In this document: one piece after another, positions 2,687 through 16,962 of the stretch
Numbering within the stretch: position 1 is the stretch's first letter
Layout of the letters: each line of letters starts with the position of its first letter
Assembly (NCBI GenBank): GCA_046563655.1
Contig: CM102284.1
Span: 6,448,001-6,512,000, forward strand
Length of the DNA stretch: 64,000 bases
Direction of reading: 5' to 3'
Source of the DNA: Yuukianura sp. NJ FZ-2021
Lineage: Eukaryota
The notes under the pieces: generated by a model
Database searches by the model: none
The model's input: only the letters and a program-made list of their open reading frames with translations
What the model was told of the DNA's origin: nothing
Position numbers and translations under genes: made by a program

Positions 2687-4818
2687 ATGGTTGACACTCT
2701 TGGGACAGGCGACAACGCCACATATACGAACAATGGGAAGCGAGATACTCTAAATATGCACTGGGACAAGGACGTTGTTTTCGGATACCTGCGGGAGATC
2801 AAACGCTTCGCCTCACCCTCATCTAAAACCACCCAAACTCAAAACGGAAACACCGGCAGCACTCCGAAGAATTTGGGACGCTCCTTCATGACAATTATAG
2901 GCGAAGTGGATTTGCTGAACGCTGATCTATGCGTTTACCGAAGAGTTATGAATCAGGTCAAGTTTCAATTCGCCAACGGCATCGAGGTACTTCGACGAAC
3001 ACTGGACATGGGAACCGCTAACGATAATCGTCAAATTCCAAGCGATTTGGAGAATGACCTGCAATATAAGCCAACAGAATGTTTCGCTGACAAAAGCACA
3101 GAGATCTTCGGTCACATCTGTGTCGGCGAGCTTGATTTGGCCACAGCTGAACTGACTACATTTCATCTTATGAGGGAGTGCCCGTTTTTCATTTTGTGGC
3201 ATGCTGACCTTGATGAAGCCATGTCATTTATTGAAGATACATTTCGGGGTCTCATCGATTGGATGAATGGAAGCAGTGTTGATGCTGGATCGCCTCAGAA
3301 TGCCATCCCCTCACCCAATGACCTATCATTGAAAGCTCAGCTAACTCTCAAAGTCATCCGTGGTTATATGCTTAGGAACTTTCGTTACAAGGGAACAGAC
3401 AGACTTGAATCGATGAAAGAAGTAAGTTTCTGAAATAACTTACATAGTAAATTGATTTAATTCCATAATCCTAACTTTGGTTTCTACATTTCAGGTTGTC
3501 GATAATAGCGATTGTTGCGAACCAGAGTGGCTGATTGCTACTTTTGATGCCGTCCGAAAAAAGTATACTAACAATACTCAAATATACTCAAGTGATTACA
3601 AAGTTGTGGATAACATCTTCATGGTTTTAGACGAGACGTGCCAAAGTACGTTCGTGGTGGACGGCATGTAGCTGAAGAGGATGAGCACATCTATGTTGAC
3701 CGAGCTCTGAAGCTGGATGACCAGAATCCATTTGTACGGCTTGCCTTGTTGGATTGTATCGTCGATTGCTTGAGAGATTCTCGCCAGTCGTTTACATGCG
3801 GTGGTGTAACTTTCCATACAAATAGCAGTCAAATCATGGTTTTCATGAAGCAATCATGCCGGTAAGCAAAATGCTTTATTCACTTCACCAAAACGTTCAT
3901 TTTTATTAAAAAAAAAATGTTTTATCTATCCTATAAACAGAGACATACTTGCTGAATTTCCACGGAGTGTGAAATTCCATAGCAGAATTTCAGACTACTT
4001 TGCCAGATTCGTCACGCTCCGATTCTTTGATATTTCCTACGCCGAGGAATGTTTGAACATTGCATATGAACTGAACCCGACATTCCCTCTCACCACTCAC
4101 AGACTTGGAATTTTCGCGCGCATGAGTGTAAGTTTATGCTGTAATAATTTTTAGAACATCTCCGGATTATCGCTTAAAGATGTGAGTTCTTACGTGCTGT
4201 TTTGATCTAATGCGTAGAAAGGCGCTTTGAGTGCATCTTTCGAGTGGTTCCGGAAGACAGAGGCATGTGAGCCGTATCACTACAACGCCTTTTTGGAATG
4301 TGTCAAAAACATGATTGGACATCCACAAAAGTACAACACTGCTCAATTTATTGAAGACAAGCTTCGCACTCCTGGAGCTTGTTCATGGACGGATGCTGAA
4401 ATTTTGGAACTGCTGTTCTACAAAGGAATTGCCCATTTTGTTCGGAATGAACCCGAAGAAGCATTGGAGACTTGGGTCCCTGTTGCTATTCAGTTTCAGC
4501 CGCATTTTCGCCTCATTGTAAGCCATTTTGAATTTAAGAATGTTGCAAAAGACTGTAACGTGTAATTTTTCCCAGGATCTGGATCAAGTCTGTGGGTTTT
4601 ACCAATGGGACATGGATCTTATAAGCAGTGACAAGTTGCGTCTGTGGATTCACAATGAGAATTTGAAGGAAGACCAGCCTCCAAGTCGCAGGGTCCTGGT
4701 CAATCGCCTCTACAATTTGATGACAGGGAAGATGATTGCAGAGAAACCGAGATGCTCATTTTATCCACTGCAGTGTGCCAGTTATTTCCAAGATAAACGG
4801 CAAACTCAGGTCAACTAA
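2687..4818 (+). CDS. Unassigned ~590-aa helical/TPR-like protein (exons ~2687-3421, 3495-3561, 3631-3861, 3941-4127, 4217-4517, 4576-4818)
   Basis: Six ORF-track fragments join in frame at canonical GT-AG sites. TPR-like segments: YAEECLNIAYELNP, LLFYKGIAHFVRNEPEEALETW, VDRALKLDDQNP. Confidence 0.65.
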
Positions 4819-5228
4819 AAAGTTAGATTAATTAGTGCCAAACATGCTTCAGCAAGATGTTCTGATTCAGTTTAGTTTTTAGTTCAGTTCACATTATTCA
4901 GTAACTATAAAATTATGCTCCAACTACGAAAACGAACAACATCGTATTCAACCGTAGCAAATTGTTCTGGAGTTTCAAGGGCTGATGGTAATTTAATTAA
5001 GTGTTAATTAAATACTTGTGTTAAGAATTTTAGATTTTGTTCCAATAGTTTGCAATATTGCGAATAAGAAGTCTAGAGTGCGGGATTTCGCTGGTTTGAA
5101 TTTTAGAAATTAAAAAAGTAAAAAAAAAATTTCGTAAAGAAATTGAAAAGTATTTGATTCGATTAATCGTTTTAACTAACTTTCTCATAAGATTAGTTGG
5201 ACTTAACATTAGAAAGAGTGTTTCAAGA

Positions 5229-8200
5229 ATGTCACTGTACGATGACCTTGACGCTGACAAGAAGTCGGACAATGTGGCTGGATGGGCTTCGGGAATCAAG
5301 TTGTTCCAGACTCACATGCAATTGAAGAAGGCAGCAGTGACACAGGTAAATCGTTTTCGATACTTATTTCCCGTTAAGCACATTGTCTTCAGTTGACTGA
5401 TTGACGGTGACTAATTAGTCAATAACCAATGCCATTATGTCAATATAAACCTGGAAGGAATCTCGTCGGATACTTTTTGAAGCTACTGCAGTTGCAGTAT
5501 TTTATTTTTACTTTTAGGTAGTTCTAAAAAGATGTATTGTTTTAGAAAACGGGACTTATTACACTTTGCTTACTAGGTAAAATCAAAAATGTCTATAAGT
5601 AAAGTCAGGATTAAATACTCATGTACAAGCTGGATTTGGTGTTCTTGCAAAAACAAAGCAGTCGACTTGGACTTGGAGTAACGTTTGTTTTCAAAAACCA
5701 GCATACCAGAAGTCAAAGTTGGCGAATTTACTTCTTAGCGAAGGTGATCTTCATGGCGTTGCTCGGTGTAATCTTAAATCCATTCAGAGTATCCTTAGCT
5801 CCGGAAGCCAAGAGCTCATTTTCGAATTCCACGAAAGCAATGTCGTGACGTCCTGGAACCAGGCGGACTTCCCTAAAGCCGGGGAACCTAAAACACAAGA
5901 TCAGAATTTAGTTATCTGATAACTCAGTCAGTGTGTTTTGCCTAAGGTGGATAGTTAATCACTTACTGGTTGAAAAGCATTTGAAGCATCATTTCCGTCG
6001 TTTCCTCAGGCAGGTTTGTAAGAAACAGGATTTGATTCGGTGGCTGCTCACCAACAGGACCCATTTCTAACAAAAGAAACAGGATTGATCTGTTGTTTTT
6101 AATAGTTATTCAAGTTTTAGGCAACGATGAAATGTTACTTACGCTGTTGCTGTTGCATTGCGTGACCAGGGAATGACGTAGTGGGGTTTACACTGTTCTG
6201 GTTTTGCGATTTCTAGAATATAACATGAACACTTTAAGTTTAATCATCGACGCAAATTAGAATTTCATATCGCAACGTTCTAACCTTAACATCCTTGCCC
6301 TTCTTCTTCTTCCTTGAATCATCCTTGGCCTTCTTCGGCTTCTCAGCAAACGTTCCCTTCATTTTCGCCACAATATCTGAGTCAGATTTGCTGTAGTTGA
6401 TTCTCTGGCAAAGACAAAGTCGAAGTAAACAGTTTTAAAGTCTCATTACATTGTACTCCAATTCCGATCAGTTGATTGCGTTAATCCCAACTCACCATTG
6501 GTTTATCGTAGAATGGAAATCCTTGCATAGATCGAAGTGCATTTGTAGCACTGTTTATTTCTTTGAAGATCACCCAAGCTTGTCCACGGAGTTTCAATGT
6601 TTTGAGTGCCACTATGTCCATTATTGGTCCAAATTGGGAAAATATAGCGTAAAGAGACTTCTTCAGCTCTAGAAACAATCACAAGTCAAATCATACGCAA
6701 CATCAAAACGTTGAGAAGAAAATTGCTGAATTCGCTTAGTCTTACCTTCCTTTTTGACCTTCTCATTGAGATTGTTGATGTAGATCGTATGGTTTGGTCT
6801 GATGTCGGAAGTAATTTGCGGTGGTTGCTGCATCTTTATCTTCTGCAAAAACAATTTATATAGCAAATTAACCCAACTTTGTCATAAAGTTAAAAAGTGT
6901 AATTTCAAAATTGAAATTCACATGTTAAAATGTGAAAAAATATAAATCAAACAAAGATGAAAGGCACACCTTTAGCAGTTATCGATACCTTACCAGTAGA
7001 CGATTAACTTCGCACTACTAAATTAGTAGATTATCTATGTAAAGATCAACAATAACAATTAGTTTTTTGTGGATTATGAATACGAATTTTGTAAACTAGA
7101 AAACTAAAAACACGATTTTTTCAGCAGACTGACATTGCGGCCGACTAAAATTTTCCGTTACTAAGCACTCCACTCACCCTTCAAACGCCGAAGGTGCATG
7201 CTGGGCATCTTTCGTGGAATTTCTTTGAATAATAATGGAGCTTCCTTATGTGAAACTTACTACATATGTATTAACTTGTAATTACTTAGCGTTGTTTATA
7301 TTATATTTATTATGTAATTTGTATTATCTAATTTATTTAAAATAGTTGAAATTATTATTAATGTCGGTGCATGGTGCATTGCGAGACATGCATTAAGAGG
7401 TGGTGCAGTGTGCTCTAGGTTGATCCATGAAATTATAAATGTTCGAAAGCCGCATTTAAATTTGGGCGCCAAAAATTTCAAAATGCTAACACATTTCAAT
7501 AGCGTCATTTCGCTTATGAGGATGAGTTTTTCAAAAGTGCAAATCCAGATTCTACATGACCTTTGACCTCCAACATACTTTATGTTTTGTTACAAATGTA
7601 GTATAGTATGGAATATGATGTAATATTTTTTTTATGTTTTTTTTTGTGAAATTTTCAGCCCAAACGAGATATGGGAAGAAAGCAGGTTCCAGTAACACTT
7701 GCGCCAGTGATCAACCTCAATTCGAACAAGGTCAAAGGTGAAACGGAGAATCGTGAAAGTACTTTACTCGGAGTAAGCAACACTGGAGGCTTCTTGGCAT
7801 CAAGTTTCAACCTACCATATTCAGTGATTCTACCAAAAGAGTCTGGAGCGCCAAAGAAGAAGAAGATGAAAGCATTTTCGTCATACTTATCAGTTGATCC
7901 TGATTGGCAATTTGAAGATGAGTATGATCCAATGTACCCAAATGACTATGAAAAAGCGCTGAGAGAATTGAGAGATCGGCGTGACAAGGAAGCTGAGGAG
8001 GAGGAGTCAAAACGGAAGCCGAGCAGTGAACCGTAAGCAATAACGTCATAAATTCCATTTTTCTCAAAGTGTCAAAAGTATTACTGAAATATGTTTTTTT
8101 TTAATTTAGAGAGGAAGATGAACCTTATAGCTCCAGTTCATCTTCCAGCAGAGGTGCTCGAGTGGAGATTGCCCCACCACCGTCTTTGTCAGCTCAGCCT

Positions 8201-9238
8201 GCTGCAGAAGCATCTAAAGATCAAGGCGGTGGCAGCAGATTTGCAGGTCCAGCGGCGTCTGGTGGAGGTGGTTCAGCCGCTGCAAGGATTATGGCCAAAT
8301 ATGGATACAAAGAGGGTCAAGGACTTGGAAAGAAAGAACAAGGCATGGCCACTGCTCTCCAGGTTTCAAATTCAAAATTACCGAAATTTTATTTCTGGAA
8401 AATGTAAAAATTTATAATTTTTGAATATCAAAACTTGCAGGTTGAGAAGACGAGTTTTCGAACTGGAAGAATCATCCATGAAAAAGACAGGGAAGTTCAA
8501 AACAGCGTTCCGAATCCAATGGGACTCGCATCTTCAATGGCTGCATGTAATAAAAAGTTTCATGCCGAAATGTTGAATTATCGTATTTGAAAATTCAAGA
8601 TTTCAGTATAATTTTTGTATTTTCGAAAAAGCGTATTTTTTTGTTTAAATTTTAGACAATGACATTGTGGATGACGAAGAAGCTGATGGAAATCCGGACA
8701 ATGATGGACCCACTTTGACTGATCTCCTCAAAAATGCTTCCAAAGTTGTCCTGCTCAGGGTAATTGAATTAGTTGTTAAAAATAGCACAACAAGTGTTGG
8801 TTAGAAATTCAAATCAAAGTATTTCCTTCAAATTTTCAAAATTTTGAAATTTCAAATTTTCAAAATTTTAGAACATGGTTGGTCCAGGAGAGGTGGACGA
8901 TGACCTGGAACCCGAAGTCAAAGAAGAATGTCAAGGGAAGTACGGTGAAGTTTCGAATGTCACGGTTTTTCAAATGCCAGATCCAGATGAGGAAGATCCC
9001 ATTCGGATTTTTGTGGAGTTTAAGGAAGTCGATTCGGCTGCGAAGGGTGAGTGACTTAAAATTTTCAAAAAAGCTTGTTTTAAAACTTTCGAAATTTTAA
9101 GCTGATTTTTCAAAAACTTTGTGTAATGATGTGTCGTTAGCTCTACTGGATTTGAACGGACGATTTTTTGGAGGCAGACAGGTGAAGGCATCGTTCTACG
9201 AATATGATAAATACACGAACTTGGAGTTGACTTTGTAA
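5229..9238 (+). CDS. SPF45: Splicing factor 45 / RBM17 (exons 5229-5345, 7659-8032, 8110-8362, 8441-8546, 8656-8759, 8872-9046, 9141-9238)
   Basis: MSLYDDL...[20 protein letters not shown]-terminus, SF45 motif [13 protein letters not shown]-patch ([22 protein letters not shown]), C-terminal UHM ([14 protein letters not shown]...LNGRFFGGR). Confidence 0.95.
5728..6833 (-). CDS. snf: U1A/U2B''/SNF snRNP protein with two RRMs, nested in SPF45 intron 1 (exons 6833-6746, 6668-6496, 6404-6285, 6212-6143, 6066-5967, 5887-5728)
   Basis: [107 protein letters not shown]. Confidence 0.96.
6980..6987. promoter_or_regulatory. DRE-like palindrome TATCGATA near the snf 5' end
   Basis: Exact match to the arthropod DREF-binding element about 150 bp upstream of the snf ATG. 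A single 8-mer could be chance. Confidence 0.3.
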
Positions 9239-9420
9239 AGTGCATGGATGTACTGCCGAGTTCAAAATTTTAGTTCAAGATTTTTAATATTTAATTTAAT
9301 TTTATAAAATTGAAAGTAGAGCTACAGAATAATAAGTTTTGTTGTTAAAATTTTGAAATAAGTTTCAATAATAGAGAGAGAAATTGTCAAAAAACGAAAA
9401 AAGAGAGTAGAATTGTGGGT

Positions 9421-12057
9421 TTAAATTTTTGGAAGACCAGCAGCAATGCTGTCTTCAATTCCACATTCATTTGAGCCTCGCTTGATCTTGAAGAAGCCAC
9501 CATCACCTTCAGTAAGACAAAAAAAAATATATTTTTTTAAGTTTTTCAATTTTCGAAACTTTTTAAAAATTTTAAATTTTTTAGAAACCTTACCCCAGTC
9601 GTAGTTCCAGGAATTGGCAATCAACCAATAGGGAGTGTCGTTCTCAACGCCCCATCCGACCATCTTGACCGCATGACCTCCAAGTTCAGTTCCAGTTTGA
9701 TGTGAGTACACTCCTAGATTTATGTCTCAATTAGTTTTAAATTGAGTTTTTGAATTTGGAAATTTTGATTTTGAAATTTTCAGTTTGAAATTTTGTTTTC
9801 CTTGCCTTTTTTGTATAGAAGGAAGTCCGAGTACACAGAAAATGCTGCCTCGACTGGTCCGTTTTTCATGATGTCCATTTGAATTTGTTGGACATGACGA
9901 GCAATTGAATAAGCTTTCTTGCCATAATGAAGATCTTGGCCATAAGGAACTTTGTACCCATCGTCACAACTTTTCTGACACTTCGGAGTCTCTCCTTCCC
10001 CAGTGCAGTTGGGTCTTGAGCCACTGGAATGATGTTCACATGGCGGAATTTCATAGGATTGACAGCCCTAGTCATCAAGTAATTGACCCCAATTTAATTA
10101 ATTTGTCACAGTTAAAACTAAGTTGCTAAATTCAATTGAATTTTTCAGATGCGCATGCGCTTACTTGATGAGAATCGTAGGGTCCACCGGAGACGATTCC
10201 AATTTCTACCCAGTACTCCCAAGCAGCTAAAAATTGAAATGTAAGCATTTTAGCAGAAAATAGGTTGAATTTGAGCTGAAATCGACAGCTTATGATGATT
10301 GCGTGACACTTTTTAATTGTTTGTATAGACCTGCAGGAAATCCACCGTTGCAACCATCTCCGCATGAAGCACAACATGAAACCAGATTTTCTGCTGAGAA
10401 TCTAAATTTCTTTGTTCCTTTGGTGGCAATGCAGTAACGATCAGTCATGGCTTCAGTAGCAGCAAACGCCTGTTTTTCAACATTGAAAACGAATTCAACA
10501 AAGGCAACATGTAACGTTTATTTTTAAAAATACCAAACAATAGGAAAAGTATTTGACGAATTTTTGTAGAACTTGGCATGTATTACTCATGCTGTTGTTT
10601 GTGCAATGCTAACTTCCAATGTTTGACTTTGTTACCGTGTCTTTCTATGTTTTAGGAAGATAACAAGAATTGAGTCAGAGGTCACGCGGGTCAAGAGTTC
10701 TTACTAAGAATTCTTTAGGCGCAGTCCATTCAATGTCACTCAAAAGCTGAAACTTTGCGTAATCTTGTCTTTTGACGTGGCCTGCTTATGTAAACACTTA
10801 ACAGTTACATGATTGTGACCTAAAGTGACCTGGAGGAACCGTGACCAGAGTCACGGCCTAGGGAAATCCCAAGTCTTAAGCCTCTTTCAGACTGGATACG
10901 CCGCAACAACTGTCTACGGCAGTTGTGCCGGCGTAACAAACTGCCGTAGATAGTTGTTGAAGGGTTTCACAGTAGCCAACGTATTTTTTCCTACTTCGGT
11001 ACTGCTGATTAGGGAAGGATGATCAGCTGGGATGAGATGGGTCCAAAAGTTGAAACTTTTCAATTACGCTATCAAATTTCGGAAAAACGTTTTGTCCATT
11101 TTCGGAAAATTGTGCTTTTGAATCTGAAAATTGCATTGCAACTTTTGACCTTTTGAAATTCCTGATTAGAGCAATCTTTAAAAAAAAACTTTTCTGAAGT
11201 GGCGTATATGAAGTGGCGTATACTTGAAAATCGTAAGTATCTAAATAGTTAACGTCTTTGTTTTGAAATGCGCAATTTCAATTTCTGCAATTCAATCTTT
11301 CACTAAAGATCGTAAGTTGTGCGTAATTTAGCAAATTCGTTGCAATTCGAAGCCTTCTACTCATCGCAATCGCATAGAGTTGCTAATTTCGGAACAATAA
11401 TTCGAAATTTTTAACGGAAAGACATCGCAAGGCGTTTCGGAAATTGTTTTTAAAAAATTTTCAAAGTTTTTCAAAATTTGTTGGAAAACGATTAATGTAC
11501 GTTTCTTACCCAACATGAACCGCAGGATCCTTGGTCTCTGACTTCTTTTAAGGAGGGGCAATTGGGCCATTTTGTCCTGGAGTCAAAGGATTCTGGAATG
11601 TAAATGCCTTCAAGTCGATGTTTCCGTTCCGGAAGACGATGTTCCTTCCATCCTGCTTTGACACCCATCAACTGCTTGATGTAACTCCAGTCTGTCTTAG
11701 GATCAAAATTTCGTCCAGCCTGGAAGTATCAAGCATCCAGCATCAGAATCAAATTGCATGTTACAAGTAATCAAAACTGCAAAACTGTTGCATATTTCTA
11801 ATTTTTGGAAATTCTAAACTTACTGTCCAATTTTTCTGGATAGAGTTGATGTGATTGATCATATCGTCAGAGAGGGGATGAAAATCATCTGGATTGACTG
11901 CAGGGGAAGATTCGGATTCATCTGAATCCGTCTCTTCTGATTCCAGACTGGCAATGTCATCGTCATAACCGAAGTAATCGTGGAGGAAGCTTGCTGTTCC
12001 TACTGATGTCCATGACAAGGACAGTAGGACAACCGTCAATAATTTAAGGGCCAGCAT
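9421..12057 (-). CDS. CTSB: Cathepsin B (exons 12057-11824, 11719-11510, 10469-10331, 10226-10165, 10067-9806, 9713-9594, 9506-9421)
   Basis: Signal peptide, propeptide [22 protein letters not shown] active site, GCNGGFP, occluding loop [34 protein letters not shown]. Confidence 0.95.
10904..10959. repeat. 56-nt inverted repeat/hairpin (21-bp arms) in the cathepsin B large intron
   Basis: caacaactgtctacggcagtt (10904-10924) pairs with aactgccgtagatagttgttg (10939-10959), with one G-T position. Confidence 0.85.
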
Positions 12058-12608
12058 CCCTTAATTGAACAAAAGCGTAGTTTCTGGAGGAAGATTTCTG
12101 AAACCTATTTGATGAGAGTCCAGTTGATGACTAAATCTGTTCAACAGAAGTTACCAACAAGGAGAGATCAAATTTCAACTTTTGAGCTACCCCAGGATGA
12201 CTCAAAATGTTTCAAAGCATCCAATCCTGAATCTTGTAAGCATTTTTTATGCTGTGATGCTTTGAAGCTATGGAATCCATAGCGTTTGTGTTCTTGAAGC
12301 ACGATAAGATTCCTCCCCCTTCAAGATATGTATTTACAGCTTTGCTTTTTGTTTAACTTGCTGTTGCTATTCTTTCAAAAAGTTATTATCTTTTTTCTTT
12401 TGTAGCAACTTGTATGACAAACGGCAGAGGTCAAAGGTCAAAACAATGAAAAATGAAGAAAAAGGAAATGCGAAGTGTGAGACAAAAATATTATTCATGC
12501 TTTTTTGTTTTTGAAAAAAAAAAGTCATTTTGACACGAACTGAAGTCAAGTTTTATGGCGTGACCTTTTGACCTTTGAAAGTTGAAGCGGCGAAAATTGT
12601 AGAAAATG

Positions 12609-14096: not shown

Positions 14097-14643
14097 TCAC
14101 TTCAACTTTGTGACGTAACTGATCATAGCATTCCCTTGAACAGGAACATTGAAAAATATATTGGTTTATGCGGCGTCTTTATTCAATAGTAATTATTTTT
14201 CAGCTTCTTTTTTAGTTTCAAAATTATTAATTTAAGTTAATTTCAATATCAATTAAGTATAACTACAATTAAATTAAAAACAAAAGTGCTCATTTCGTTC
14301 TTTCTACGGTTCCATCTACCTTCGCAAACTGCCACCAGTTCCATTGGCGGGTATGTTATTTATAAAAAAGAATTTTTGTTTTGTTTTCTATTTGCTCTTT
14401 CAATTTCATCGAGTTGTTTTGAAAAACATTTGCAATTGGTGAATTGGTGAGTGAGTTCTTGATTAAAACCTAATTAGCTCGTAACCAAACGCTAAAAGCA
14501 CAAGTATTCCGGAAAGGAGAAGCAGCATCCGTAACAGGTACAGCACCGGTAAATCAATTGTTTAACGATCTTGGGTAATTGGATTTGCTGGTAATTGGAT
14601 TTCATTTTTGGTAGGTTTAACAATTCCAAAGTGACGAGAGCCC

Positions 14644-14943
14644 ATGATGGAACATAGCCAGGGCCAAGATCTTAAATCCAAATTGGATACTCTACTGACC
14701 CAGAATGGAGAGATTGAGCAGTTGAAGGACCTGCTCAGGAAACGATTACTGGAATCTGGTTGGAGAGAAGAAGTACGCCTAGCCTGTCATCGAGTAATTA
14801 AAGAAAATGGACTTGAGAATTGTTCTGTGGAATCAATTGTTAGAGATGTCACGCCGTCATGTCGAGAAAAGATACCCGCTGCAGTGAAGAAAGAACTTCT
14901 TCAGCATATCAACACGGCTGTCCAGAAGTACATTGACAAGTAG
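14644..14943 (+). CDS. ENY2: Enhancer of yellow 2 / Sus1 (SAGA and TREX-2 subunit), single coding exon
   Basis: GEIEQLKDLLRKRLLESGWREEVR...VESIVRDVTP...IPAAVKKELLQHI; 99 aa. Confidence 0.93.
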   Translation: MMEHSQGQDLKSKLDTLLTQNGEIEQLKDLLRKRLLESGWREEVRLACHRVIKENGLENCSVESIVRDVTPSCREKIPAAVKKELLQHINTAVQKYIDK

Positions 14944-15247: not shown

Positions 15248-15778
15248 TTAGATGCTGTCAACTCCAAAAGCTTTTCCGTATCCACCCCTGCCAGCATCGT
15301 AGTCCTTACGAAATTCATCTCTAACTTGTCCACCAGATTTCCCTCGGCCAAACTGTCGTCCTTCCTCGAAGCCAGCATCCCAATCAGTTCGAATGATGCG
15401 ATCATCCAGTTTAGTTCCATTGACATAACGAATGGCATTCTCTGCATCGTACCGATCATAGTATTCCACAAAACAGAATCCACATGGAGTCTTTTTGAAT
15501 CGGTCCAGTCCCATCACAATACGTCGAAGGTCGCCACATTTTGAAAAAAGCTCATGGATTTGGTACTCTCTGGTATAAAACGACAGATTTCCAACGTAGA
15601 GAGTGGTCGAGGTCAGCAGCTTCTTCTCCAAGTCACTTTGAGTCCCCTTTATAAAGTAAAACAGTGTCAATTCAGTGAATAACTCGCCCGAGGATTTGTA
15701 ACAATCGACAACGTGACGTTTGATAATGTCCCTTACCTTGAATAGCTGATCTCGGTACTCGCTCAATTTGGCAGACAT
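15248..15778 (-). CDS. NCBP2: Nuclear cap-binding protein subunit 2 / CBP20 (exons 15778-15737, 15646-15248)
   Basis: [11 protein letters not shown]...[27 protein letters not shown]...[12 protein letters not shown]...[24 protein letters not shown]. Confidence 0.97.
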
Positions 15779-16962
15779 CTTTGTATACGGGTGTACTTGG
15801 TTGAACTGCAAATCAAATAGGTTCCTATTCGAAAGTGCTGTGCCGTTACTTCCAATGAATTGCTTTAAACTTTATAAGTAGTAACATCTAGATCTAACAA
15901 TGTTAGATTGTAACATACCTTACTTTTTCACGAATTAACGATTGACTTGTGAGGTCAACGCTGTGCTGGCAGAAGACAACTCTGCTCCTTCAGTCCAATA
16001 TTAAGATCAAAGATGTGCCAGTGCAACGTTTCACGTAGTGGCGACGGTCCAGGCAATCCAGTCGTCCAGCAATAAAAGTAACGGTAATCGTAAACGCTAA
16101 CGTTGCTTGATTCGATTTCGGTTATCACTTTGTTTTTGAAAAAGTAAATAAATAATTTTTTGAGTTTGACACACACACATACACAATAGAAGTCCACCAC
16201 TCACTACGTATGGGCAAACAAATAGTAAGTTTTGTCATAATTTATTATTTTGAATATTAATCCTAACGTTAATTGCAATTAATTAATTAAGTGCTACATT
16301 TTAAATGTACATTTGAGCTTATTATACTACTAATAAATGTCCCGGGTTAAGTACAATGTACAAGGTATGGTAAATCCATAAAAGCTTTTAATGCCGTTTA
16401 CGGATTTGGCATTGCATGAGGTGAGCACATGTCAGCTGTTTCATTTACATAATACCTCCTACACGTTCTTCAGTAAATCCCGTTGTTTTGCATCCGCAGG
16501 ATCCCCGAATCCCGGGAGAAGGGAGATCTCTTACATGTGGATGTGGAAGATATCAGTTCATTAAGTGCGGTTACGATTGAATTAAGCCAGACGCTCAGAC
16601 GGTATTTCCATTTTCCAGTTCAGTCGTAAGTTGTTTCTTCAAAGGAGAACAAGTCACCTCTCCTCAGTTTGGCTGGCTGGTGCCGACATTACGTTCTGAA
16701 ACGCTTATCATCAGGCACGTTTTTTATCGAAAAATTGTAAAGTTTTGCAGAGGAGCAGATGTAATTGAATTGTCAGAAATCTCAGGGAAGCTTGGAAACT
16801 TAGTAACCTAGGTCAGCTTGTATTGTATCTGCAATCATTCTGGTTGGCATTTAGCATGTGTAATTTTTGCTTTTTCTTTCTCAATTTGCAGGATTTCGTG
16901 AATCTCGGCCAAACAATTTTAAACGTTCCTGTGACATGACAAGGTGAAGAGAAAAGTTGAAG

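Follow-up and report, generated by a model that had tools for sequence, protein, structure and literature searches.

Nested genes, including those carried on the strand opposite to their host, are common. In Drosophila a single protein, SNF (sans fille), serves both the U1 and the U2 small nuclear ribonucleoproteins (snRNPs), and vertebrate U1A autoregulates through a polyadenylation inhibition element (PIE) in its own 3′ untranslated region (UTR). Here we describe a locus in which the gene for the U1A/U2B″/SNF protein (snf) lies, in antisense orientation, within the first intron of the gene for another U2-snRNP-associated protein, the splicing factor SPF45 (RBM17). The locus is part of a 64,000-nucleotide (nt) stretch of DNA from Yuukianura sp. 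NJ FZ-2021 (assembly GCA_046563655.1, contig CM102284.1, positions 6,448,001 to 6,512,000, forward strand), to which we refer at its full length as the window; coordinates are window positions unless a related locus is named.

An initial examination of the letters of the window and its open reading frames (the sequence-only reading) had pointed to joint action of SPF45 and SNF in the splicing autoregulation of Sex-lethal (Sxl) in Drosophila, and had suggested from the nesting that the two genes form a coupled unit. The partnership stands in that SNF and U2A′ co-immunoprecipitate with SPF45, which also affects skipping of the Sxl male exon; as to direct contact, the two-hybrid interaction is with U2A′ and not with SNF (PMC1687153, in its available text). 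This Sxl role belongs to drosophilid sex determination, according to the accessible part of PMC3677924, and does not carry over to the animal studied here. We conclude, with a probability of roughly 0.78, that the nest, rather than being a regulatory unit, is an ordinary, lineage-restricted pair of nested genes on opposite strands.

Results

Nesting of snf in SPF45 intron 1

Gene models of both genes were assembled by script from a read of positions 4800–9600. On the plus strand, SPF45 consists of seven exons that form a single open frame of 408 codons and a stop (5229–9238), separated by introns of 2313, 77, 78, 109, 112 and 94 nt, all of them GT...AG. On the minus strand, snf has six coding exons (6833–5728; 236 codons and a stop) with five coding-region introns of 77, 91, 72, 76 and 79 nt, likewise all GT...AG. 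The whole snf coding sequence (5728–6833), together with the sole AATAAA that follows it, is thus contained in the SPF45 intron at 5346–7658, on the opposite strand. Ten of the 11 introns of the two genes measure 72–112 nt, and the eleventh, SPF45 intron 1, houses snf. The coordinates first proposed for snf, for intron 1 and for SPF45 proved exact in these models; the gene identities, exon counts, antisense nesting and exceptional size of intron 1 were borne out by the GT–AG models, Pfam, solved chains and orthologue alignments. The features are as follows.

SPF45 exon 1, 5229..5345 (+): start codon, 39 codons, open frame to the consensus donor GTAAAT
SPF45 intron 1, 5346..7658 (+): 2313 nt, phase 0, host of snf; GT...AG; a long pyrimidine tract precedes 7659
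SPF45 exon 2, 7659..8032 (+): 51–68% identity to SPF45 proteins
SPF45 exon 3, 8110..8362 (+): G-patch (Pfam PF01585, E 3e-11)
SPF45 exon 4, 8441..8546 (+): gene model, colinear with orthologues
SPF45 exon 5, 8656..8759 (+): gene model, colinear with orthologues
SPF45 exon 6, 8872..9046 (+): first part of the C-terminal UHM/RRM-like domain; matches SPF45 chains 5lso and 2pe8, E 8e-15
SPF45 exon 7 and stop codon, 9141..9238 (+): colinear with orthologues to the last residue
snf coding exon 1, 6746..6833 (−): ATG at 6833–6831; gene model
snf coding exon 2, 6496..6668 (−): core of the first RNA recognition motif (RRM1); RRM_1 E 2.5e-9, U1A/SNF chains E 2e-28
snf coding exon 3, 6285..6404 (−): linker, colinear with the relative P0128
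snf coding exon 4, 6143..6212 (−): linker, gene model
snf coding exon 5, 5967..6066 (−): start of RRM2; RRM_1 E 0.004, under the Pfam cut-off when scored alone
snf coding exon 6, 5728..5887 (−): remainder of RRM2, stop at 5730–5728; RRM_1 E 3.8e-5
AATAAA, 5501..5506 (−): the sole one on the snf strand 3′ of the snf stop, 221 nt past it

SPF45 exon 1 is the only match in the window to the conserved N-terminus of SPF45. It agrees with the N-terminus of Orchesella dallaii SPF45 at 27 of 39 residues, and a tblastx comparison with L004, one of the related loci considered below, gave 86% identity over 35 residues. Placed one after the other, the end of exon 1 and the start of exon 2 make up the unbroken protein sequence of two relatives, P0003 and P0005, and the phase-0 position of intron 1 is common to four related loci (L003, L004, L007 and L013). 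On this evidence, exon 1 is very probably spliced across snf and the nest very probably real. From the AATAAA at 5506–5501 we infer that the complete snf transcript would lie inside the intron, its predicted 3′ end falling ~135–155 nt from the SPF45 exon 1 donor, still within intron 1; the join conserved in orthologues suggests that the host exons would be united across it in the mRNA. On the other side of the guest, the distance from the snf ATG to SPF45 exon 2 is ~825 nt.

Identity of host and guest

Judged by a homology that is beyond chance, the plus-strand gene is SPF45/RBM17. It encodes the conserved N-terminal segment, a G-patch and a C-terminal UHM, and is colinear over its whole length with named SPF45 proteins. 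Residues 1–408 of the model align end to end, at 55% identity, with residues 1–424 of P0003, an Orchesella dallaii protein listed in UniRef as splicing factor 45; identity is 57% to P0005, again end to end, and 44–46% to insect SPF45 proteins. Exon 6 matched the solved SPF45 UHM (5lso, 6hip, 2pe8) at E ~8e-15, with the PUF60 UHM behind it at E 1e-9.

Similarly, the minus-strand gene is, by homology and not by chance resemblance, U1A/U2B″/SNF. All 57 residues of its second coding exon matched the U1A/SNF chains 6f4g and 2k3k at E ~2e-28 and U2B″ chains at E ~3e-25, placing its N-terminal RRM close to RRM1 of U1A/SNF; a second, C-terminal RRM follows, and the length falls within ~215–280 residues. 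The model aligns end to end (residues 1–236) with P0128 at 86% identity, shows ~71% identity to a Frankliniella fusca protein that carries the NCBI name U2 snRNP B″, and is colinear with relatives of 232–246 residues. Since snf keeps five coding-region introns, it is not a processed retrocopy. Directly 5′ of the snf ATG stand an acceptor-like AG and a pyrimidine tract (6834–6845, −), and donor-like sites occur at ~6993 and ~7177 (−); a non-coding first exon with an intron in the 5′ UTR is possible.

Gene order in related loci

Relatives were drawn from metagenome contigs scanned with an alignment of SPF45 exon 2, which gave 34 SPF45 loci, six of them 10–20 kilobases (kb) long. Searching these with tblastn at E up to 1e-3, we found snf in none of the 34. 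Most of the other loci read as intronless and transcript-like and are uninformative on gene order. The informative set is made up of nine genomic loci that hold both SPF45 exon 1 and exon 2, their taxon labels being given by best similarity only, and in none of the nine was snf present in intron 1.

L003: intron 1 of ~87 nt; springtail-like clade
L004: intron 1 of ~110 nt; springtail-like clade
L006–L009 (four near-identical loci): intron 1 of ~730 nt; closest to Periplaneta (cockroach), 83%
L013: intron 1 of ~270 nt; closest to Ephemera (mayfly)
L018 and L029: this position lacks an intron; not placed

The window grouped with L001 in a quick maximum-likelihood tree (SH-aLRT, the Shimodaira–Hasegawa-like approximate likelihood ratio test, 99). 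A starred clade of eight rows (SH-aLRT 99) held the window, L001, P0005, P0002, Orchesella dallaii, L003, L004 and L002, set off from insects, decapods and ticks, although stars in such a quick search call for some caution. L003 and L004 belong to the window's own clade, so two of its members carry a short, snf-free intron 1. The closest relative is L001, 77% identical in SPF45; its contig ends 176 nt upstream of SPF45 exon 2, and those 176 nt hold no exon 1, so that its intron 1 is longer than that of L003 or L004. We also noted that exon 1 of L003 (841–1068 of that locus) contains a glycine/serine-rich insert of ~10 residues that is absent in the window, L004 and Orchesella, and that the automatic gene call for this locus (P0004) begins within intron 1 and so misses exon 1.

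The two genes also lie apart outside these loci. According to the available text of PMC1687153, D. melanogaster spf45 is located in 2L heterochromatin, and a 3.1-kb fragment holds that transcription unit alone. In Ephemera danica, the SPF45 tag (EDAN002318) is on a 1.48-megabase (Mb) contig and the SNF tag (EDAN016576) on a 0.35-Mb contig, as distant tags on separate contigs. Conserved snf/SPF45 microsynteny was therefore not found in other arthropods: the comparison was negative wherever it could be run, among the 34 loci, in the nine informative ones, in Drosophila and in Ephemera. With intron 1 short or absent in all nine, this speaks against the coupled unit that the sequence-only reading had drawn from the nesting. 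The absence of the nest from these relatives is an observation; a single gain on the branch leading to the window would be a more parsimonious account of it than several losses.

Sequence features of intron 1

Rfam, searched over 4500–9800 at E up to 1, returned only a chance-level match to TeloSII_ncR30 (E 0.55; 18.6 bits against a cut-off of 86). Comparing intron 1 with the rest of the window revealed no matching repeat; within the intron there are one 16-nt direct pair and four inverted pairs. One inverted pair, 5619–5638 with 7540–7559 (20 nt, 18/20 matching), was considered as a means of looping snf out of the SPF45 pre-mRNA and rejected as chance, because matches of at least 18/20 occurred in 22 of 100 dinucleotide shuffles. 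The stop-to-stop frames at 7296–7589 (−) and 7318–7566 (+) gave no Pfam match. On the SPF45 strand, intron 1 contains one weak poly(A)-like hexamer only, ATTAAA at 5610. Composition is smooth, with a GC content of 0.36 in the intron and 0.39 in the window, which is free of any N.

A pair of AUUGYAC boxes upstream of the poly(A) signal is the motif of the U1A-type PIE. The guest gene resembles autoregulated vertebrate U1A in that it is orthologous to U1A, and its 3′ UTR runs for ~220 nt up to the AATAAA. It differs in that no AUUGYAC box, and hence no pair of boxes, occurs on the snf strand in 5346–5727, a stretch that takes in the snf 3′ UTR, for which the sequence-only reading had proposed a scan for U1A-type autoregulatory elements. 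Across the whole window, 21 such boxes were observed against 19.5 expected, which is the chance rate. The sequence bears no sign of a special regulatory device, and coupling of the two genes drew no support from these sequence tests.

Neighbouring genes

Tail to tail with SPF45, ~180 nt past its stop codon, lies a papain-family cysteine protease gene (9421–12060, −) with Peptidase_C1 exons and a match to the C1 propeptide; L001 has a papain-family protease gene in equal order and spacing downstream of its SPF45 (1886–2921 of that locus). A single-frame e(y)2/ENY2 gene follows at 14635–14940 (+; EnY2 E 2e-23), adjoined by a frame for an RRM protein at 15251–15871 (−; RRM_1 E 2e-16), a second RNA-binding gene less than 10 kb from the nest. 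The region 17521–63204 is gene-dense, with about one gene per 3–5 kb, and includes the following.

17.5–18.4 kb: mitochondrial carrier
20.5–23.9 kb: DEAD helicase and Tudor frames
28.9–35.1 kb: PSME4
45.3–46.1 kb (−): DNAJC11
51.2–53.9 kb (−): BTB/zinc-finger gene
56.6–56.9 kb: cofilin
61.5–63.2 kb (−): WD40 frames

Discussion

The arrangement described here can be accounted for without any special relation between the two genes. SPF45 would have carried a long-established phase-0 intron immediately behind the exon for its conserved N-terminus, and a complete, intron-bearing snf would have come into that intron in the springtail-like hexapod lineage, the intron growing from ~100 nt to 2.3 kb. 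The nest most likely arose in this way, an intron-bearing gene having been relocated at the DNA level into an old and short intron, as a gain and not as the remnant left by losses elsewhere. The guest would have come with an upstream region and a polyadenylation signal of its own, the two genes would be read from independent promoters, and the SPF45 pre-mRNA would run through snf in antisense, the whole 2.3 kb being removed constitutively as intron 1. Coincidence is the most likely reason why both genes encode U2-snRNP-associated proteins. Genomes hold hundreds of nested pairs, and ~1–2% of genes encode spliceosome proteins, figures that predict ~0.2 chance pairs of two spliceosomal genes in a genome; to come across one in a large scan would be unremarkable.

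We consider it improbable that the nest is instead a selected regulatory unit, in which opposite-strand transcription of snf, or pairing of snf mRNA with SPF45 pre-mRNA, would slow or block SPF45 transcription or the removal of intron 1 and so tie the doses of the two U2-snRNP-associated proteins. Such a unit would fit the membership of SPF45 in the same complex as SNF and U2A′ in Drosophila (PMC1687153, available text) and the effects that opposite-strand nested pairs can have on their hosts in other animals, as described in the accessible parts of PMC12274878, PMC13309782 and PMC3192792. It would also suit the predicted snf 3′ end, just ~135–155 nt from the SPF45 exon 1 donor, and the L001 intron 1 of more than 176 nt, by which the nest may be common to at least two species. 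These points are met by the lack of the nest in all nine informative genomic loci, two of them in the window's clade, as well as in Drosophila and a mayfly; by the snf 3′ UTR, which has no AUUGYAC box on the snf strand; by Rfam, with no match below E 0.55; by the only long inverted repeat across the intron (18/20 nt), which 22 of 100 shuffles equalled; and by the splice sites of SPF45 intron 1, which look strong. A more elaborate proposal, that snf, on moving into intron 1, gave rise to a self-referential circuit, is very improbable: here convergent transcription and antisense pairing would tie SPF45 output to snf activity, removal of the snf-antisense intron would need SNF-containing U1 and U2 snRNPs, and the doses would be tied in cis.

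Two further alternatives would do away with the nest itself. If SPF45 had its promoter in 6834–7658, head to head with snf, and started at a methionine five codons into exon 2, the genes would be divergent neighbours and 5229–5345 a relic or an alternative first exon. The ~825 nt between the snf ATG and SPF45 exon 2 would leave room for a bidirectional promoter, and the fifth codon of exon 2 does encode methionine; however, the 39 codons of exon 1 form an intact frame that ends in a consensus donor and is close in sequence to both Orchesella (27/39) and L004 (86% over 35 residues), exon 2 starts precisely at the position of the conserved phase-0 intron and is preceded by a strong acceptor, and the N-terminal peptide is retained in full-length orthologues, which align from residue 1. 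We therefore regard this arrangement as highly improbable. It is scarcely credible that a snf-bearing piece was falsely joined into the SPF45 intron during assembly. The L001 contig ends before the critical region, leaving the stretch without an independent copy for comparison, but the window contains no N, the intron shares no repeat with the rest of the window that might cause a false join, its composition is as smooth as noted above (GC 0.36 against 0.39), and a long intron 1 is seen independently in L001, which has no exon 1 within 176 nt of exon 2.

Some points weigh against an ordinary, lineage-restricted pair. The L001 contig ends before any exon 1 is reached, and L001 may share the nest; the microsynteny count leaves out, as undecidable, both L001 and Orchesella dallaii, the one named springtail; Orchesella dallaii SNF is absent among the 120 matches listed in the snf protein comparison. 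The splicing from 5345 to 7659, the ends of the snf transcript and the independence of expression are all what we infer from the features described above. Functional links between host and guest occur less often than the chance pairing of unrelated genes. Real regulatory effects between hosts and guests are documented elsewhere (PMC12274878 and PMC13309782, in the text available).

If the ordinary reading of the nest holds, the locus adds a further opposite-strand nested gene and offers a datable entry of an intron-bearing gene into an old, short, position-conserved intron, bearing on how nested genes originate by DNA-level relocation as opposed to retroposition. For annotation, it illustrates that SPF45 exon 1, which lies beyond snf, is easily missed. 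Were the two genes shown to influence one another, they would provide a compact natural system in which to study transcriptional interference between genes for members of the same complex. Literature searches on nested intronic genes of Collembola and on SPF45, snf and Sex-lethal yielded no description of a snf/SPF45 nest, and the word "nested" does not occur in the available portion of PMC1687153.

Taken individually, host and guest are close to their described counterparts. Like human SPF45/RBM17 and Drosophila Spf45 (CG17540), the window gene has the conserved N-terminal exon, the G-patch and the C-terminal UHM-type domain; it differs in an intron 1 of 2313 nt with another gene inside, as against 0–730 nt in relatives. 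The 236-residue guest protein has two RRMs and a basic linker, as do Drosophila SNF and human U1A and U2B″, and differs from them in the location of its gene inside an SPF45 intron, which was seen in no relative examined. As a nest, the locus follows a familiar plan. Some nested genes do influence their hosts (PMC12274878 and PMC3192792, in their available text). Complete guest genes lie in opposite-strand host introns, as here, in the protein-coding case of 2mit in tim2 of D. melanogaster (PMC3786989) and in that of Mcts2 in H13 of mouse (PMC13309782), and the opposite-strand nested pairs of C. elegans likewise have guests with their own signals within a host intron (PMC12274878), each according to the part of the source available. 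What sets the present pair apart from these systems is that host and guest both encode U2-snRNP-associated proteins.

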